Below, piece after piece: positions 47,222 to 64,000 of a stretch of 64,000 nucleotides of DNA (its first letter is position 1; the number at the start of each line of letters is the position of its first letter). The translations under genes and the position numbers were made by a program. The notes beneath the pieces were generated by a model. It saw only the letters and a program-made list of their open reading frames with translations, searched no databases and was not told the DNA's origin. The DNA lies in assembly GCA_002778465.1 (NCBI GenBank), contig PFBV01000002.1:2312-66311 (forward strand). Reading direction: 5' to 3'. Source of the DNA: Candidatus Magasanikbacteria bacterium CG10_big_fil_rev_8_21_14_0_10_36_32. Lineage in GTDB: Bacteria > Patescibacteriota > Patescibacteriia > Magasanikbacterales > GWA2-37-8.

Positions 47222-47273
47222 GGAGAGGTGGCTTCTGAGCTCCTGCCTGCCGGTAGGCAGGGGTCGAAAGCGG
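47222..47273 (+). pseudogene. Duplicated 5' portion (nt 1-29) of tRNA-Ser(GCU), interrupted by 3-nt and 20-nt insertions
   Basis: GGAGAGGTGGCT|tct|GAGCT|CCTGCCTGCCGGTAGGCAGG|GGTCGAAAGCGG compared with the tRNA 5' end GGAGAGGTGGCTGAGCTGGTCGAAAGCGG at 47529-47557. All 29 shared nt are identical. Confidence 0.7.
47242..47261. repeat. 20-bp GC-rich palindrome CCTGCCTGCCGGtAGGCAGG (second copy at 53222-53241)
   Basis: One mismatch from a perfect palindrome. The perfect copy CCTGCCTGCCGGCAGGCAGG is at 53222-53241. GC content contrasts strongly with the background. Confidence 0.8.
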
Positions 47274-50799: not shown

Positions 50800-52797
50800 A
50801 TGGCCGAAGGTGCAATTAAAAAAATCGCGGAAAAAATACAGCTTATTCCAGCCAGGAAAAATAATTGGAAAACCGTCGTAATAATATTGGCGGTTGTTTT
50901 TGGTTTATTGGCGGTTGTGTTCGGCGTATCAGTCGTTTATTCCAAAACATACGTTGGAAAAGTTTATCCCGGAATTTATCTTGGGCATTATGATTTGTCA
51001 GGTTGGACAGCCGATGATGTAAAAAAGTTTGTTGATAGTTTTAGCCGACGTTTATCTCAGGAAGGATTGGTTTATATGTTTGAGCAAAACGGGCAATCGC
51101 AAAGAGTAGCGGTTAATCCGGCGCTTATTTCCAGCGAAGCGGCCATTGAAACGATTTTTTTAAGCAATAAAGAATTTGCCGGTGAAATTTTAAATATTGG
51201 CAGGGGAGAATCTTTTTGGTTTAAAAAAATGTGGCTGCCGTTGTGGTATAGAATAAAAACGATTCATTTGTCTTTGCCGGTGAAAATTGACCGTCAGAAT
51301 TTTCAAGGGATTATAGAAAACGCGTTAGAGGGATATGTGATTGAACCGCGTGACGCCAATATTCATTTGAGCAGTATTAATCCGTTGGCTTATGAGCTGA
51401 CTTTAGAACAATCAGGTGAAGTTTTTGATTATGAACAAATTATAGATGATACAGTTCAAAAATTATCTGAGCCGTCGCTGGAATCAATCGTTATTTCAAA
51501 ACGGTTGGTTATTCCATCGGTGACAAAAAAAGATTTAGCGGCAGCTGAAGAAAATATTTTAAGGGCGTTTAATTTTGGTCCGGCGATATTATCCCATACC
51601 GATACCGATGCCAAAGAAACTCAAGTTTGGTCGGTTGGTCCGGAATTATTGGTAAAATGGTTAAAACCTGTTTATGATTCCACCGGGAAAATTAAGTTGG
51701 AATTAAAAGAAAAAGAAGTGGGTCAATATTTGGAAAATTTGAGGGTGATTGTTGATCAGCCGGCTGAGGATGCTAAATTTTCAATGGAAAATGGCAAGGT
51801 GAGTGAATTTAAAAATGGTCATTCCGGACGCAGTTTGAATGTGGCTAAAACTTACGGTGAATTAAATAATTTATTTATCAAAATAAGCCAAGGAGAAAAT
51901 GTTGATAAAACAGTTATTAATTTAGCGGTTGACCAAACCGAACCGAAATTGAAATTATCCGATATTAATGATTATGGAATTACCGGAATATTCGGCGTTG
52001 GTACTTCAACTTTTTATGATAGTCATAATAACCGCATTAAAAATATTGCCAACGCAGTTGAACGGTTGAATGGTATAATTATCAAGCCGGGGGAAGAATT
52101 TTCTTCTATTAAATATGCCGGTTCATTTACTGAAGAAAATGGATTTTTACCGGAAGAAATAATCAAAGGCAATAAAATTATTAAAGAAGTCGGAGGAGGA
52201 ATGTGTCAGATTGGCACCACTTTGTTCAGAATGGCCATGAATTCCGGTATGCCGATTACAGAACGAACCAATCATTCTTTGGTGGTTGGTTATTATGCAG
52301 ATCCAATTAATGGAAATCCGGGTACGGACGCTACTTTGTATGAACCAATTTTGGATTTTAAATTTATGAATGATACCGGCGGTTATTTGTTGTTGCAAAC
52401 GGAAATTAATTATAAAAAACAAATGTTGATTTTTACTTTGTGGGGAACACCTGATGGTCGTTCTGGATTTTATAGCCGTCCGATAGTGAGTAAATGGATT
52501 CCAGCCGGTTTGCCGCAAGAAATAAAAACAACCACTTTAAAACCTGGTGAGACAAAATGTCAAAATGCATTTCGTGGCGCGAACGCCAGTTTTACATATA
52601 CTCGGTTTAATCAATCGGGTGAAAAAATTGAACGGGTATTTTCCAGTTATTACCGTCCGTTGCCAAAAATGTGTATGACTGGCATTAGTCCGAATGAATG
52701 CCCTGACGGAAAAACAACTTGTGATATTATTGTTAAAAATACAGCCACCAGTACGCCTTCGGCCACACCGAATTCTCAACCTCTTTTAGCTGACTAG
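50800..52797 (+). CDS. VanW-family protein, membrane anchored
   Basis: N-terminal TM helix. The C-terminal VanW core is GGGMCQIGTTLFRMAMNSGMPITERTNHS..YY. Confidence 0.8.
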   Translation: MAEGAIKKIAEKIQLIPARKNNWKTVVIILAVVFGLLAVVFGVSVVYSKTYVGKVYPGIYLGHYDLSGWTADDVKKFVDSFSRRLSQEGLVYMFEQNGQSQRVAVNPALISSEAAIETIFLSNKEFAGEILNIGRGESFWFKKMWLPLWYRIKTIHLSLPVKIDRQNFQGIIENALEGYVIEPRDANIHLSSINPLAYELTLEQSGEVFDYEQIIDDTVQKLSEPSLESIVISKRLVIPSVTKKDLAAAEENILRAFNFGPAILSHTDTDAKETQVWSVGPELLVKWLKPVYDSTGKIKLELKEKEVGQYLENLRVIVDQPAEDAKFSMENGKVSEFKNGHSGRSLNVAKTYGELNNLFIKISQGENVDKTVINLAVDQTEPKLKLSDINDYGITGIFGVGTSTFYDSHNNRIKNIANAVERLNGIIIKPGEEFSSIKYAGSFTEENGFLPEEIIKGNKIIKEVGGGMCQIGTTLFRMAMNSGMPITERTNHSLVVGYYADPINGNPGTDATLYEPILDFKFMNDTGGYLLLQTEINYKKQMLIFTLWGTPDGRSGFYSRPIVSKWIPAGLPQEIKTTTLKPGETKCQNAFRGANASFTYTRFNQSGEKIERVFSSYYRPLPKMCMTGISPNECPDGKTTCDIIVKNTATSTPSATPNSQPLLAD

Positions 52798-52822
52798 CTG
52801 TGTTGGCAGGATAATTTAAACT

Positions 52823-53061
52823 AAAAAACAAACCACCCCGCATTATTTTGCGGGGTGGTTTAATTGATATTGGGGGAATGAACCCCCTAGAGTTCCGTAT
52901 TCAAGAAGATGTGTCAAAGGTGGAGATAAGCCGTGGCCTATGCAGACCGTTAACACATCCCCATGCTTGTGGTGAATACGGGAAATTGCTCGTTTTTTCT
53001 CGTTAAAAGGGGCAATTTCTCGTATTCTTACAGCATTGGATGTCCGTAGATTTTCAAACAA
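52823..53061 (-). ncRNA. Candidate ~240-nt structured non-coding RNA (class unknown)
   Basis: A minus-strand promoter (TTGACA-N17-TACAAT, 53096-53068) and the terminator at 52861-52823 bracket a region with no ATG-initiated ORF or RBS. It contains a 16-bp stem with one mismatch (GAATACGAGAAATTGC / GCAATTTCCCGTATTC, plus-strand coordinates 52974-53027). A competing GAATACGG segment and a GGGGG-n6-CCCCC hairpin are also present. Confidence 0.35.
52830..52861. terminator. Bidirectional terminator
   Basis: AAACCACCCCGC-attatttt-GCGGGGTGGTTT with A-run and T-run flanks on both sides. Confidence 0.8.
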
Positions 53062-53067
53062 CAAAGT

Positions 53068-53096
53068 ATTGTATCACATCTAAATCATTTTGTCAA
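53068..53096 (-). promoter_or_regulatory. Near-consensus sigma70 promoter with no downstream CDS
   Basis: On the minus strand: TTGACA (53096-53091), 17 nt spacer, TACAAT (53073-53068). Confidence 0.5.
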
Positions 53097-53212
53097 CCCC
53101 GTTAGAAAAGCCAATTGAAAAATTTTAGTAATCTTAGCCTAAAAATTGAATAATACCCTGTGGATAAACCTTTAGAAAAGCATCTTTTCGTGGAATAATT
53201 TTCTAACGGGGT
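53096..53212. repeat. ORF-less element bounded by a perfect 14-bp inverted repeat related to the GIY-YIG cassette IR
   Basis: ACCCCGTTAGAAAA at 53096-53109 and TTTTCTAACGGGGT at 53199-53212. It shares the 11-mer ACCCCGTTAGA with the IR at 14847/15123. The interior is 89 nt and non-coding. Confidence 0.55.
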
Positions 53213-53214
53213 CA

Positions 53215-53290
53215 AGCCCGACCTGCCTGCCGGCAGGCAGGCGTAAAAAAGTCGGGGTCCCGACCCCCCAAAGGGGCGTCGGGAGGGATC
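53215..53290. repeat. GC-rich cluster of nested hairpins including the 20-bp palindrome
   Basis: CCCGAC[CTGCCTGCCGGCAGGCAGG..]GTCGGG, then CCCGAC[CCCC-caaa-GGGG]cGTCGGG. Very GC-rich relative to its surroundings. Confidence 0.6.
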
Positions 53291-53423
53291 AATTTAGTCA
53301 TTTTTTGGTTTAAACTGGGGAAAAATATTATTTTTGGCTAATGTTAGGGTTAAAATCTGTATTATCCGTATTTTGTTTATTAATTCAAGTCAATGTGTTA
53401 ATTTTATTTATTTTTATTTCAGA

Positions 53424-53454
53424 ATAAAACAAAAACCCCGCATTTACGGGGTTT
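53424..53454 (-). terminator. Rho-independent terminator for the 52-aa ORF
   Basis: On the minus strand: AAACCCCG-taaatg-CGGGGTTT followed by TTGTTTT. Confidence 0.7.
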
Positions 53455-53473
53455 GAAGAACAATAAAGGTATT

Positions 53474-53632
53474 TTATTTGCGATTGTGTATGATGTTATA
53501 GAAAAATTCAGCGCTGACTGCGCCAAGGGCTATACCAAACAGAATACCAATCGCGCCCAATGAATTTTTGAATAAGAATCCGATGACTCCTCCGGCCACA
53601 GCTCCAATGAGCATAATTGATTTGTCCAACAT
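53474..53632 (-). CDS. 52-aa glycine-zipper-like hydrophobic micro-protein
   Basis: AGGAG RBS before the ATG at 53632 (the track ORF extends to 53680). Encodes MLDKSIMLIGAVAGGVIGFLFKNSLGAIGILFGIALGAVSAEFFYNIIHNRK. It has its own promoter-like TTGACA-N17-TATCTT and its own terminator. Confidence 0.45.
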   Translation of the reverse strand: MLDKSIMLIGAVAGGVIGFLFKNSLGAIGILFGIALGAVSAEFFYNIIHNRK

Positions 53633-53717
53633 TATTTGTCTCCTTGGTTTTGGTTGCGTATTAAAAAGAACATTGTTCAAAAGATAGCATTTTTATATAG
53701 ATGTGTCAATTATAGAT

Positions 53718-53753
53718 AAAAACAAAAAACCACTCCGTTTACTGAGTGGTTTT
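53718..53753 (-). terminator. Rho-independent terminator after clpP
   Basis: On the minus strand: AAAACCACTC-agtaaacg-GAGTGGTTTT followed by TTGTTTTT. Confidence 0.75.
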
Positions 53754-53763
53754 AATTTGAATC

Positions 53764-54387
53764 TTACTCAATAATTTTATCTATCAAACCGTATTTTTTA
53801 GCTTCAGTCGGATTGATGAAATAATCACGGTCAGTATCTTTTTCAATTGTCGGCATCGGCTGTCCGGTATGTTTGGCTAAAATTTTATTCAAACGATCTT
53901 TCATTTTAATAATTCTTTCCGCATGGATTTTAATGTCGCTGGCTTGACCTTCCATCCCACCCATCACTTGATGAATCATTACTTCGGCGTTTGGCAGAGC
54001 TAATCGTTTTCCTTTGGCGCCAGCGGCCAAAAGAACGGCGGCCATGCTGGCGGCCATACCGACACAAATTGTGCTGACATCGGATTTAAGAAATTGCATT
54101 GTGTCATAAATCGCCATGCCGGAAGTGACTGAACCGCCTGGAGAATTAATATATAGTTTAATGTCTTTGTCAGGATTTTGATTATCCAAAAATAGCATTT
54201 GAGCGATAACTAAATTAGCCACCGCGTCATCAATCGGTCCACCAAGAAAAATAATTCTGTCTTGTAATAAACGGGAAAAAATATCAAACGACCGTTCGCC
54301 ATAGCTGGTTTTTTCCACCACGATAGGAACGAGATGTTGAGCTTGTGGCATTTTTTGGGAAATAGTTGTATTTTCTTCTTGTGTCAT
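53764..54387 (-). CDS. clpP: ATP-dependent Clp protease proteolytic subunit
   Basis: [20 protein letters not shown], the active-site context [18 protein letters not shown], and MIHQ. Confidence 0.95.
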
Positions 54388-55518: not shown

Positions 55519-55740
55519 AACAAATTATTATATCCCTCTTGTTCATTATTGTCAAGATATGTTATAATTATGGGTATAAAATGGCTGTTAGCAGCAAATA
55601 CAGGCGAGTAAAATTAACAAATAAATTTTTTATATTTTCACGCCAAAAAAGTTTATTTTGCCTGGTATTGTGAAGTTTTTTCAGTTTTAATAAAATTTTA
55701 TCCGCAAATTATCCTGCGGTCTCTGTTTTAGGGGTTTACT

Positions 55741-58814: not shown

Positions 58815-58843
58815 TTGACATTATTCATAATTTTTTATATTAT
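58815..58843 (+). promoter_or_regulatory. Sigma70-like promoter
   Basis: TTGACA, 17 nt spacer, TATTAT. Confidence 0.45.
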
Positions 58844-60106: not shown

Positions 60107-60135
60107 TTGACAGCAGTTTTTAAATATGATATATT
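60107..60135 (+). promoter_or_regulatory. Consensus-like promoter of rpsP
   Basis: TTGACA, 17 nt spacer, TATATT. The 3' part AAATATGATATATTG is identical to the promoter at 61196. Confidence 0.55.
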
Positions 60136-61195: not shown

Positions 61196-61224
61196 TTGAC
61201 AAAAGCTTTAAAATATGATATATT
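61196..61224 (+). promoter_or_regulatory. Consensus-like promoter (twin of the rpsP promoter)
   Basis: TTGACA, 17 nt spacer, TATATT. Confidence 0.55.
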
Positions 61225-63808: not shown

Positions 63809-64000
63809 TATATTAAGAGTTTGATCCTAGCTCAGGATGAACGCTGGCGGCGTGTCTAAGGCATGCAAGTCGAGCGACGTGTTCCCCGCAAGGGGAATTA
63901 CGAGCGGCAAACGGGTGAGTAACACATTGGTAACCTACCTCTAAGTCGGGGATAGCCTGCCGAAAGGCGGATTAATACCCGATAGTAACGCGGGGGCAAA
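63809..64000 (+). rRNA. rrs: 16S rRNA, 5' ~190 nt (continues beyond the window; 5' end approximate)
   Basis: AGAGTTTGATCCTAGCTCAGGATGAACGCTGGCGGCGTG...GCAAGTCGAGCG...GGGTGAGTAACAC matches the universal 16S 5' domain (27F site at 63816). Confidence 0.92.

Follow-up and report, generated by a model that had tools for sequence, protein, structure and literature searches.

The 64,000-nucleotide (nt) stretch of contig PFBV01000002.1 from a Candidatus Magasanikbacteria genome analysed here (hereafter the window) contains, by the evidence of its sequence, a separate non-coding RNA gene of about 240 nt on the minus strand, from approximately 53062 to 52823, whose transcription is predicted from the signals at its two ends. 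Its homologues outline an RNA family that is strongly conserved in Magasanikbacteria-type Patescibacteria and, as far as searched, confined to them. The conserved core holds a nearly invariant loop, J, next to a long-range helix, one strand of which can pair instead with a segment further upstream. Our preferred explanation, to which we assign a probability of roughly 60%, is an autonomous trans-acting RNA with two mutually exclusive states, in which the invariant J would recognise a partner and the competing helix would gate that recognition.

An RNA gene with its own promoter and terminator

The predicted transcript begins downstream of a sigma-70-type promoter at 53096-53068 (minus strand), which combines the -35 hexamer TTGACA (53096-53091), a 17-nt spacer and the extended -10 element TGaTACAAT (53076-53068). 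It holds 11 of 12 consensus positions plus the TG extension and is the top site in a 2.5-kb scan. From its position, the likely transcription start site (TSS) is G 53062, and the GUU following the -10 element is conserved in homologues. The 3′ end is marked by an intrinsic terminator at 52862-52822 on the same strand, consisting of a 14-bp GC-rich stem (52862-52829) and a U-tract running to about 52822. An earlier reading of this stretch, made from the letters alone (the sequence-only reading), had described a TTGACA-N17-TACAAT promoter on the minus strand firing toward a bidirectional terminator at 52861-52830. The promoter is indeed present, and the terminator stem can form a hairpin when read from either strand, but a good U-tail follows on the minus strand only. 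The terminator is common to the convergent vanW gene, with the two genes standing tail-to-tail, and between species the stem sequences vary while their pairing is kept.

Promoter sites scoring at least 11 of 12 are found only five times in the window, the RNA promoter among them. The other four, at 55527-55555 (minus), 58815-58843 (plus), 60107-60135 (plus) and 61196-61224 (plus), lie ahead of the nrnA-clpP operon and of three protein genes situated downstream of smc, and two of them carry the TG extension. In this genome, strong promoters may have the extended -10 consensus as their standard form.

For comparison across the clade, a VanW-anchored scan with one genome per GTDB species gave 80 loci, and the contig of a 75%-identical relative (L002) brought this collection, the genome set, to 81. 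Using nhmmer and blastn, the window RNA was matched in 79/81 related loci, always just beyond vanW. Three loci gave no match: two of them run out at the vanW stop codon or no more than about 240 nt from it, while the third (L020) has its vanW homologue in another context; a covariance model search of these three, L020 included, found no RNA. The RNA core retains 70-91% nucleotide identity, compared to 41-75% for the neighbouring VanW proteins. An RNA-anchored pattern scan of metagenomic contigs yielded a further 98 stretches, the metagenome set, which served as an independent test set for pairing counts. Our covariance model R1, built from the genome set, scores 89 of the 98 at 67-137 bits, with one match per contig; the other nine have no R1 score and lack the neighbouring genes, and their number equals that of the chance pattern matches estimated beforehand. 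The window RNA itself receives 119 bits in the sense orientation versus 29 bits in antisense. The RNA is present in a single copy per locus and in a single copy in the window, and a repeat or mobile element was discarded as an identity, there being no second copy in the window and no match in viral contigs. Conservation and covariation in relatives, which the sequence-only reading had put forward as a check, are thus found in the homologous intergenic regions of both sets.

Many of the GTDB species-representative records with a Magasanikbacteria-type locus (L005, L009, L010, L012, L013 and others) are titled ‘uncultured Gammaproteobacteria bacterium’ (third-party annotation, TPA, assemblies), and one (L052) bears the title ‘Candidatus Udaeobacter sp.’. 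Mislabelling or mis-binning of metagenome-assembled genomes (MAGs) is the probable cause.

The gene order hsp20-vanW / RNA / clpP-nrnA / smc is shared throughout the clade as a syntenic block. In a divergent sub-clade, in which VanW is 34-42% identical, the RNA gene is inverted inside the same vanW-clpP spacer together with its own TTGACA-17-TGnTAnnnT promoter (L084, L092, L098, L100, L104, L119, L121, L122, L131, L140, L151, L167, L175 and L180), and is there co-directional with vanW and convergent on clpP. Leaders in the inverted clade span 10-230 nt, making some family members considerably longer than the window RNA. At a threshold of at least 10 of 12 positions, about 145 of the 158 loci compared, inverted ones included, have a promoter of this form 14-230 nt 5′ of the core; on the 3′ side, an intrinsic terminator follows the core by 50-99 nt in 150/159 loci, with a hairpin in between in 146/159. 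Since the gene has been inverted in place with its promoter, and since promoter and terminator travel with the RNA, it is best described as an autonomous gene that does not depend on the transcript of either neighbour, rather than as an untranslated region or a DNA-level spacer element. The earlier remark that there is no downstream gene to regulate, the neighbouring gene being convergent, holds in both orientations of the RNA. By the same token, adjacency to vanW or clpP is uninformative as to a functional link with either, because the whole block is syntenic and the RNA flips orientation within it.

Patescibacteria, also known as the candidate phyla radiation (CPR), have genomes of about 1 Mb with few known regulators, and to our knowledge almost none of their non-coding RNAs have been characterised besides the universal ones. 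Essentially all sampled members of a class-level clade have retained the RNA, which stands behind a consensus promoter and has a loop conserved beyond the level of the neighbouring proteins, a pattern indicative of an important function specific to this lineage.

Two competing helices around an invariant loop

The minimum free energy (MFE) of the 240-nt transcript is -91 kcal/mol, compared to -54.5 ± 4.3 kcal/mol for dinucleotide shuffles (z = -8.5), with 0 of 200 shuffles as stable. Together with covariation in about 160 other loci and the conserved promoter and terminator, this bears out the stand-alone structured RNA of about 240 nt that had been proposed from the sequence. The conserved core is an imperfect rod, made of a 9-bp long-range helix (PL) and a hairpin of about 21 bp (P2), which are separated by J on the 5′ side and by one or two U on the 3′ side. 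Read along the minus strand, the RNA opens with a 5′ leader (53030..53062) that is variable in length and sequence across the family and short in the window lineage. A leader-to-J pairing that appears in the window MFE structure (P0, AUGCUGU:ACAAGCAU) is not a conserved feature, because the core-adjacent segment of leaders performs no better than a control segment (p=0.78).

Three hairpins show how pairing has been maintained while sequence has drifted. The distal part of hairpin P1 (52982..53019, minus strand; GAAAUUGC ... GCAAUUUC plus loop) varies in length and sequence with its pairing conserved: RNAalifold pairs 42-46/106-110, all 10 pairs change on both sides, and in L002 the stem is retained around an expanded insert. 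P2 (52905..52962, minus strand; GGGGAUGUGUUA ... UGACACAUCUUC) forms a long, imperfect stem that is interrupted by an internal loop and capped by an apex of the form GGC-loop-GCU, where the loop is most often UUCG. RNAalifold finds both P2 and the stem of distal P1, many of the pairs being compensatory, and assigns 21 pairs to P2, most of them with compensatory changes; in the pairing counts, P2 is 95-98% paired. P2 also contains invariant G·U pairs at 137/199 and 161/172 (71-72 of 72 sequences); the other strand would have A·C mismatches at these positions, and with the higher sense score of R1 this fixes the transcribed strand. P3 (52872..52887, minus strand; GGGGG-UUCAUU-CCCCC) is conserved as a hairpin but variable in sequence. 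This last hairpin had already been picked out in the sequence-only reading, along with a 16-bp stem with one mismatch (GAAUACGAGAAAUUGC at 53027-53012 and GCAAUUUCCCGUAUUC at 52989-52974, minus strand) and a third segment, GAAUACGG (52902-52895, minus strand), which was thought able to compete for the same partner; all three lie where they had been placed.

At the centre of this competition is the middle strand CCGUAUUCA (52973..52981, minus strand), the shared partner of both helices. In state A, the 5′ copy GAAUACGA (53020..53027, minus strand) acts as the competitor strand and pairs with CCGUAUUC of the middle strand to form the base of P1. In state B, the middle strand pairs with 52895-52903 to form PL, whose 3′ strand, the 3′ copy UUGAAUACGG (52895..52904, minus strand), comes after an invariant CUUCUU. 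For counting, structure B was taken as distal P1, PL and P2, and structure A as the same with the 5′ copy:middle strand pairing in place of PL. Structure B cells are paired in 93.3% of cases in the genome set and 93.1% in the metagenome set, and structure A cells in 89.7% and 87.4%, respectively. When the partners of structure B are slid against each other as a control, only about 40-45% of cells are paired, and none of 500 shuffles reaches the observed values.

PL alone is paired at 96.7% in the genome set and 99.2% in the metagenome set. Most of its positions show three unpaired cells in the genome set, which match the three L015-type sequences (L015, L034 and L061), in which the 3′ copy sits one alignment column out of register. 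In the metagenome set, PL is formed by UG, UA, CG and GC pairs at 141/296 and 143/294, and by CG (70) and UA (13) at 144/293. Its compensations, several of them independent, include CCGUAUUC/GAAUACGG in the window clade and CCGUAUCC/GGRUGCGG in the majority of sequences, as well as more divergent versions: CCGUAGUC/GACUACGG in L092, CGCGCCC/GGGCGCG in L134, CCGCAGUC/GGCUGCGG in L153 and CCGCAUUC/GAAUGCGG in L106.

The state A helix (columns 26-35/116-125) is also mostly paired. In the genome set, G-C is replaced by A-U at 28/123 (GC 58, AU 8), and similar replacements are seen in the metagenome set at 4/144 (GC 66, AU 7) and 9/138 (GC 52, AU 9), the latter in the CCCUG clade. Comparing L034 with L061 gives a further compensatory case for pairing of the 5′ copy, and the A-U compensations in that copy fall exactly where the middle strand changes. 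The ten contested pairs of state A are nevertheless imperfect, with four positions unpaired in 19-44 sequences, and are kept less strictly than those of PL. From the compensatory changes in both helices we conclude that the mutually exclusive pairings are real and that both are under selection, PL more strictly; as judged by covariation, the best-supported helix of the RNA is the long-range PL and not the 16-bp hairpin base. The alternative folds suggested in the sequence-only reading therefore stand as far as both helices are concerned, but not as a family-wide trait, since the upstream competitor strand occurs in most lineages, including that of the window, and is absent from some clades. 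Nearest-neighbour energies calculated for 72 main-clade RNAs put state A ahead in 67, with a median advantage of 4.7 kcal/mol. Where divergent clades lack a good mimic strand, the RNA folds straight into PL, sometimes over 19-25 bp, giving a rod-shaped core.

Enclosed by PL and P2 is J (52963..52972, minus strand), a nearly invariant loop of 10-11 nt, CACGACAAGCAU, which reads CCACAAGCAU in the window and CGACAAGCAU in the family consensus and is single-stranded in both states. Within it, ACAAGCAUGG is invariant or at least 90% conserved. Conservation is highest in J, together with the GG(R)G 3′ of it and CUUCUUG on the facing strand. The Watson–Crick and G·U pairs that flank J (145/292, 146/291, 157/289, 158/288 and 160/286) are the same in 84-87 of the 87 distinct sequences, though free to covary. 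An invariant unpaired J between invariant pairs is what would be expected of a three-dimensional recognition pocket, whereas a plain antisense seed would not need invariant flanks. J and its flanking pairs may thus form a recognition pocket for a conserved partner, most likely a protein and possibly a small ligand.

Partners for J were sought within the RNA and in ribosomal RNA. Inside the RNA, no region is enriched over shuffled J as a pseudoknot partner, and nothing beyond chance was found against 23S and 5S rRNA (complete, from carrier L134) or the 5′ end of 16S rRNA. The J region (52963-52973) is complementary at 9 of 11 positions to a universally conserved 16S segment, GCAUGCAAGUCG (63861-63872), with an A·A/A·A interruption. 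We judged this pairing to be due to chance, because the duplex energy against rRNA is no better than that of shuffled queries, and because 23S, 5S and the 16S 5′ end offer nothing better.

Possible modes of action

The mechanism that we favour, with the RNA acting in trans, would work as follows. In state A, the 5′ copy is paired with the middle strand, extending P1; in state B, the middle strand is paired with the 3′ copy as PL, which would give the partner-competent fold. The upstream mimic strand would then be a built-in competitor, holding the RNA in state A until either the partner or co-transcriptional kinetics favour PL, and J with its invariant flanking pairs would present a three-dimensional pocket to the conserved partner. 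A more specific and speculative version, which we hold to be rather doubtful, makes the RNA a subunit or sensor of a lineage-specific CPR system: a self-gated, trans-acting RNA whose pocket (J, PL and P2) would bind a protein or metabolite only after the 3′ strand has displaced the mimic. If true, such an RNA would be a stand-alone riboswitch-like or ribonucleoprotein switch without a cis target, possibly with a housekeeping function unique to Magasanikbacteria.

Several points weigh against the gated, trans-acting RNA as proposed. Its transcription is deduced from conserved signals alone. Calculated energies favour state A, and a functional state B rests on covariation, not on thermodynamics. 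The 5′ competitor is about 75-80% paired and missing from some clades, so that the switch may be a lineage-specific embellishment or an aid to co-transcriptional folding and not a regulatory gate; independent compensatory events for pairing of the 5′ copy are few, about three to four. The search for J targets covered the 64-kb window and 1.49 Mb of related loci, with genomes being roughly 1 Mb each. Finally, the argument for a protein or ligand at J is an indirect one.

Among the alternatives, a base-pairing small regulatory RNA (sRNA) deserves the most attention, though we think it unlikely. J, or the exposed GGAUnCGG copy, would be a seed for mRNAs encoded elsewhere, and the two states would control its presentation. 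A stand-alone gene with promoter, terminator and an A/U-rich 3′ region fits this idea, as does an unpaired invariant segment of 11 nt, a typical seed size; the J complement CCAUGCUUGUCG also contains AUG and could cover a start codon, in which case such a site would read AUGCUUGUC. Against this, the window has no complement to J with at most two mismatches, and its sites with three mismatches are at the level of chance (13 observed versus 10.3 expected). Neither J nor the 3′ segment has targets beyond chance near the neighbouring genes, and 1.49 Mb of related loci hold no excess of J-complementary sites other than on the antisense strand of the gene itself. An sRNA would moreover need an equally invariant target across a clade with proteins about 40-50% identical, and the invariance of the helical pairs beside J is not required for seed pairing. 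A trans-working ligand-sensing RNA of the riboswitch type, or a small ribozyme, with the invariant loop as small-molecule pocket or active site, strikes us as improbable. The architecture is aptamer-like, having in PL a closing helix made from distant strands, an invariant junction, a variable hairpin and a competing helix, and the predicted advantage of state A means that state B would need extra stabilisation. Yet no Rfam riboswitch or ribozyme is matched, there is no downstream gene in either orientation, and the terminator has no alternative pairing with the core. Most small self-cleaving ribozymes are unlike a single-copy gene in core-genome synteny with a dedicated promoter. A cis-regulatory riboswitch or leader was rejected outright, as the gene that comes next converges on the RNA whichever way the RNA is oriented and the terminator stems vary freely with no conserved alternative partner in the core.

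Less probable again is a divergent functional analogue of 6S RNA, which would be abundant and bind the RNA polymerase holoenzyme through a helix-flanked bubble, with the mimic strand serving in release much as synthesis of product RNA (pRNA) triggers rearrangement in 6S. The strong housekeeping-type promoter, the single copy and the near-universal presence in the clade are compatible with this, and some lineages (L087 and L106) have a rod-like core with a 19-25 bp closing stem, a bubble and a 24-bp terminal stem. A conserved alternative pairing is also known in 6S, and at the level of sequence the 5′ copy would correspond to a product RNA templated from the middle strand. However, the central bubble of 6S RNAs is open on both strands, whereas here it is extremely asymmetric (10-11 nt versus 1-2 nt); 6S RNA as such was rejected for this reason and for the main-clade form, in which P1 and P3 flank a 9-bp PL and which is not rod-shaped, rods occurring only in some divergent lineages. 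The sequence invariance of J is atypical of 6S as well, and no match to RF00013 is found at gathering score or at E<=10. A DNA-level element (a recombination or segregation site, or a bidirectional terminator region), or a cis-antisense regulator acting by read-through into vanW, has in its favour that the element always sits between convergent transcription units near smc and shares its hairpin terminator with vanW. We regard it as very improbable, given that the invariant, strand-specific G·U pairs would be A·C on the opposite strand and mismatched in DNA, that the covariance model scores sense far above antisense, that the consensus promoter accompanies the element even when inverted, and that the strong terminator following it in 150/159 loci has no antiterminator alternative.

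A small protein gene, with the structure being incidental, can be considered effectively refuted already. The window does hold an uninterrupted 73-codon frame with a TTG start (52843-53064), the only open reading frame (ORF) that the sequence-only reading had seen there, and which it had set aside for want of a ribosome binding site and for running through the terminator stem. Both observations hold, the start also lies upstream of the predicted TSS, and the frame is not conserved: no frame across the core is open in all homologues (the best, on the antisense strand, in 54/71), the longest ORF in homologues has a median of 29 aa, and a Pfam search gave no match. As for the coding-type substitution patterns by which a conserved small protein would have been recognised, homologues show no excess of variation at third positions, substitutions are pairwise compensatory, and P1 and P3 carry indels of any length, not in multiples of three.

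Genomic neighbourhood and comparison with known RNAs

The RNA gene converges with vanW (50800-52797, plus strand), whose product shows 100% identity to a protein recorded under ‘Candidatus Magasanikbacteria bacterium CG10_big_fil_rev...’. Upstream of it, on the minus strand, are a 68-aa ORF, clpP and a DHH/DHHA1-family (nrnA-like) gene. Compared to related genomes, the distance between clpP and the RNA promoter is greater in the window by about 380 nt (53100-53480), and this additional stretch folds better than its shuffles (z = -3.6) and contains its own terminator at 53454-53433 and a terminator-like GC hairpin with a T-run at 53284-53245. For the 68-aa ORF, which belongs to this stretch (53474-53680, minus strand), Pfam matches to the glycine-zipper and DUF456 membrane families are weak and sub-threshold. 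Beside the -35 hexamer, and sharing one base with it, stands a perfect 14-nt inverted repeat (53096-53109 / 53199-53212). The 20-nt GC palindrome CCTGCCTGCCGGCAGGCAGG occurs twice in the window, at 53222-53241 and, with one mismatch, at 47242-47261, where none is expected by chance; the second copy is embedded in GC-rich sequence, GGAGAGGTGGC...GGTCGAAAGC, some 270 nt upstream of tRNA-Ser.

To place the RNA among known families, the 4227 covariance models of Rfam 15 were used. At gathering score, the whole window gives only tRNA-Ser and the start of the small subunit (SSU) rRNA, and in 16 diverse homologous loci the matches are confined to tRNA, 23S and 5S rRNA; at E<=10, the interval 52600-53800 shows only weak terminator-type chance matches far below gathering score. 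No RNase P RNA was found with Rfam, the single Rfam match to transfer-messenger RNA (tmRNA) scores 6.7 bits and lies outside the RNA, and ARAGORN found no tmRNA. The Infernal/Rfam scan that the sequence-only reading had recommended was thus run without any family being matched, and these results agree with its by-eye judgement that the RNA is not that of the signal recognition particle (SRP), RNase P RNA, tmRNA or 6S. Full-text literature searches found no description of such an RNA. Based on the lack of an Rfam 15 match and of a published description, we file it as a new, previously unannotated family of a familiar kind, the stand-alone structured bacterial non-coding RNA, whose distinguishing feature is the built-in mimic strand. 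The family is a candidate Rfam entry and would offer a clear-cut natural case of selection acting on two helices that exclude each other. With a covariance model for it, Magasanikbacteria MAGs, many of which probably carry wrong labels in public records, would be better annotated.

Some resemblances to known RNAs were pursued and dropped. SRP domain IV is recognised by a GNAR tetraloop between AGG and AGCA loops; here the apex is GGC-loop-GCU with a mostly UUCG loop, and there is no RF00169 match at E<=10, so the small SRP RNA was rejected. A tmRNA combines a tRNA-like acceptor, a T arm and a tag ORF, and RNase P RNA has conserved P4 helix regions; for tmRNA, the loop of P3 is not conserved as a T-loop. 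Likenesses to group II intron domain V (CCGUAU...ACGGUU), the 16S h44 decoding site, the SRP ACCA loop and, for P3, a T-arm were abandoned in turn, none of them being conserved across the alignment or right in architecture.

Of the systems with which the RNA can be compared, the small SRP (4.5S) RNA is similar in its long imperfect hairpin with conserved asymmetric internal loops, in having its own promoter and terminator, and in being single-copy and clade-wide; the window RNA differs in lacking the domain IV signature and any Rfam SRP match, and in its invariant loop lying about 21 paired positions from the apex. With 6S (SsrS) it shares a housekeeping-type promoter, a single copy, helices flanking an unpaired loop and a conserved potential to refold, and it is probably abundant as 6S is; in contrast to 6S, its loop is one-sided and invariant in sequence, its main clade forms no rod, and it gives no Rfam 6S signal. 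Riboswitch aptamers with P1/anti-P1 switching have, like the window RNA, a closing helix from distant strands, an invariant junction, a variable hairpin and a competitor for one of the closing strands. In the window RNA, however, the competitor is upstream instead of in a downstream expression platform, no gene follows in either orientation, and the terminator is constitutive. Orphan non-coding RNA classes, such as the raiA motif, OLE and those of the Weinberg/Breaker type, are likewise stand-alone and intergenic, with islands of conserved sequence in loops and junctions, covarying helices, restriction to one lineage and no assigned function. The window RNA is set apart from these by having no match in Rfam 15, by its occurrence in Magasanikbacteria-type genomes only, as far as searched, and by its built-in competitor strand, with compensation in both helices.

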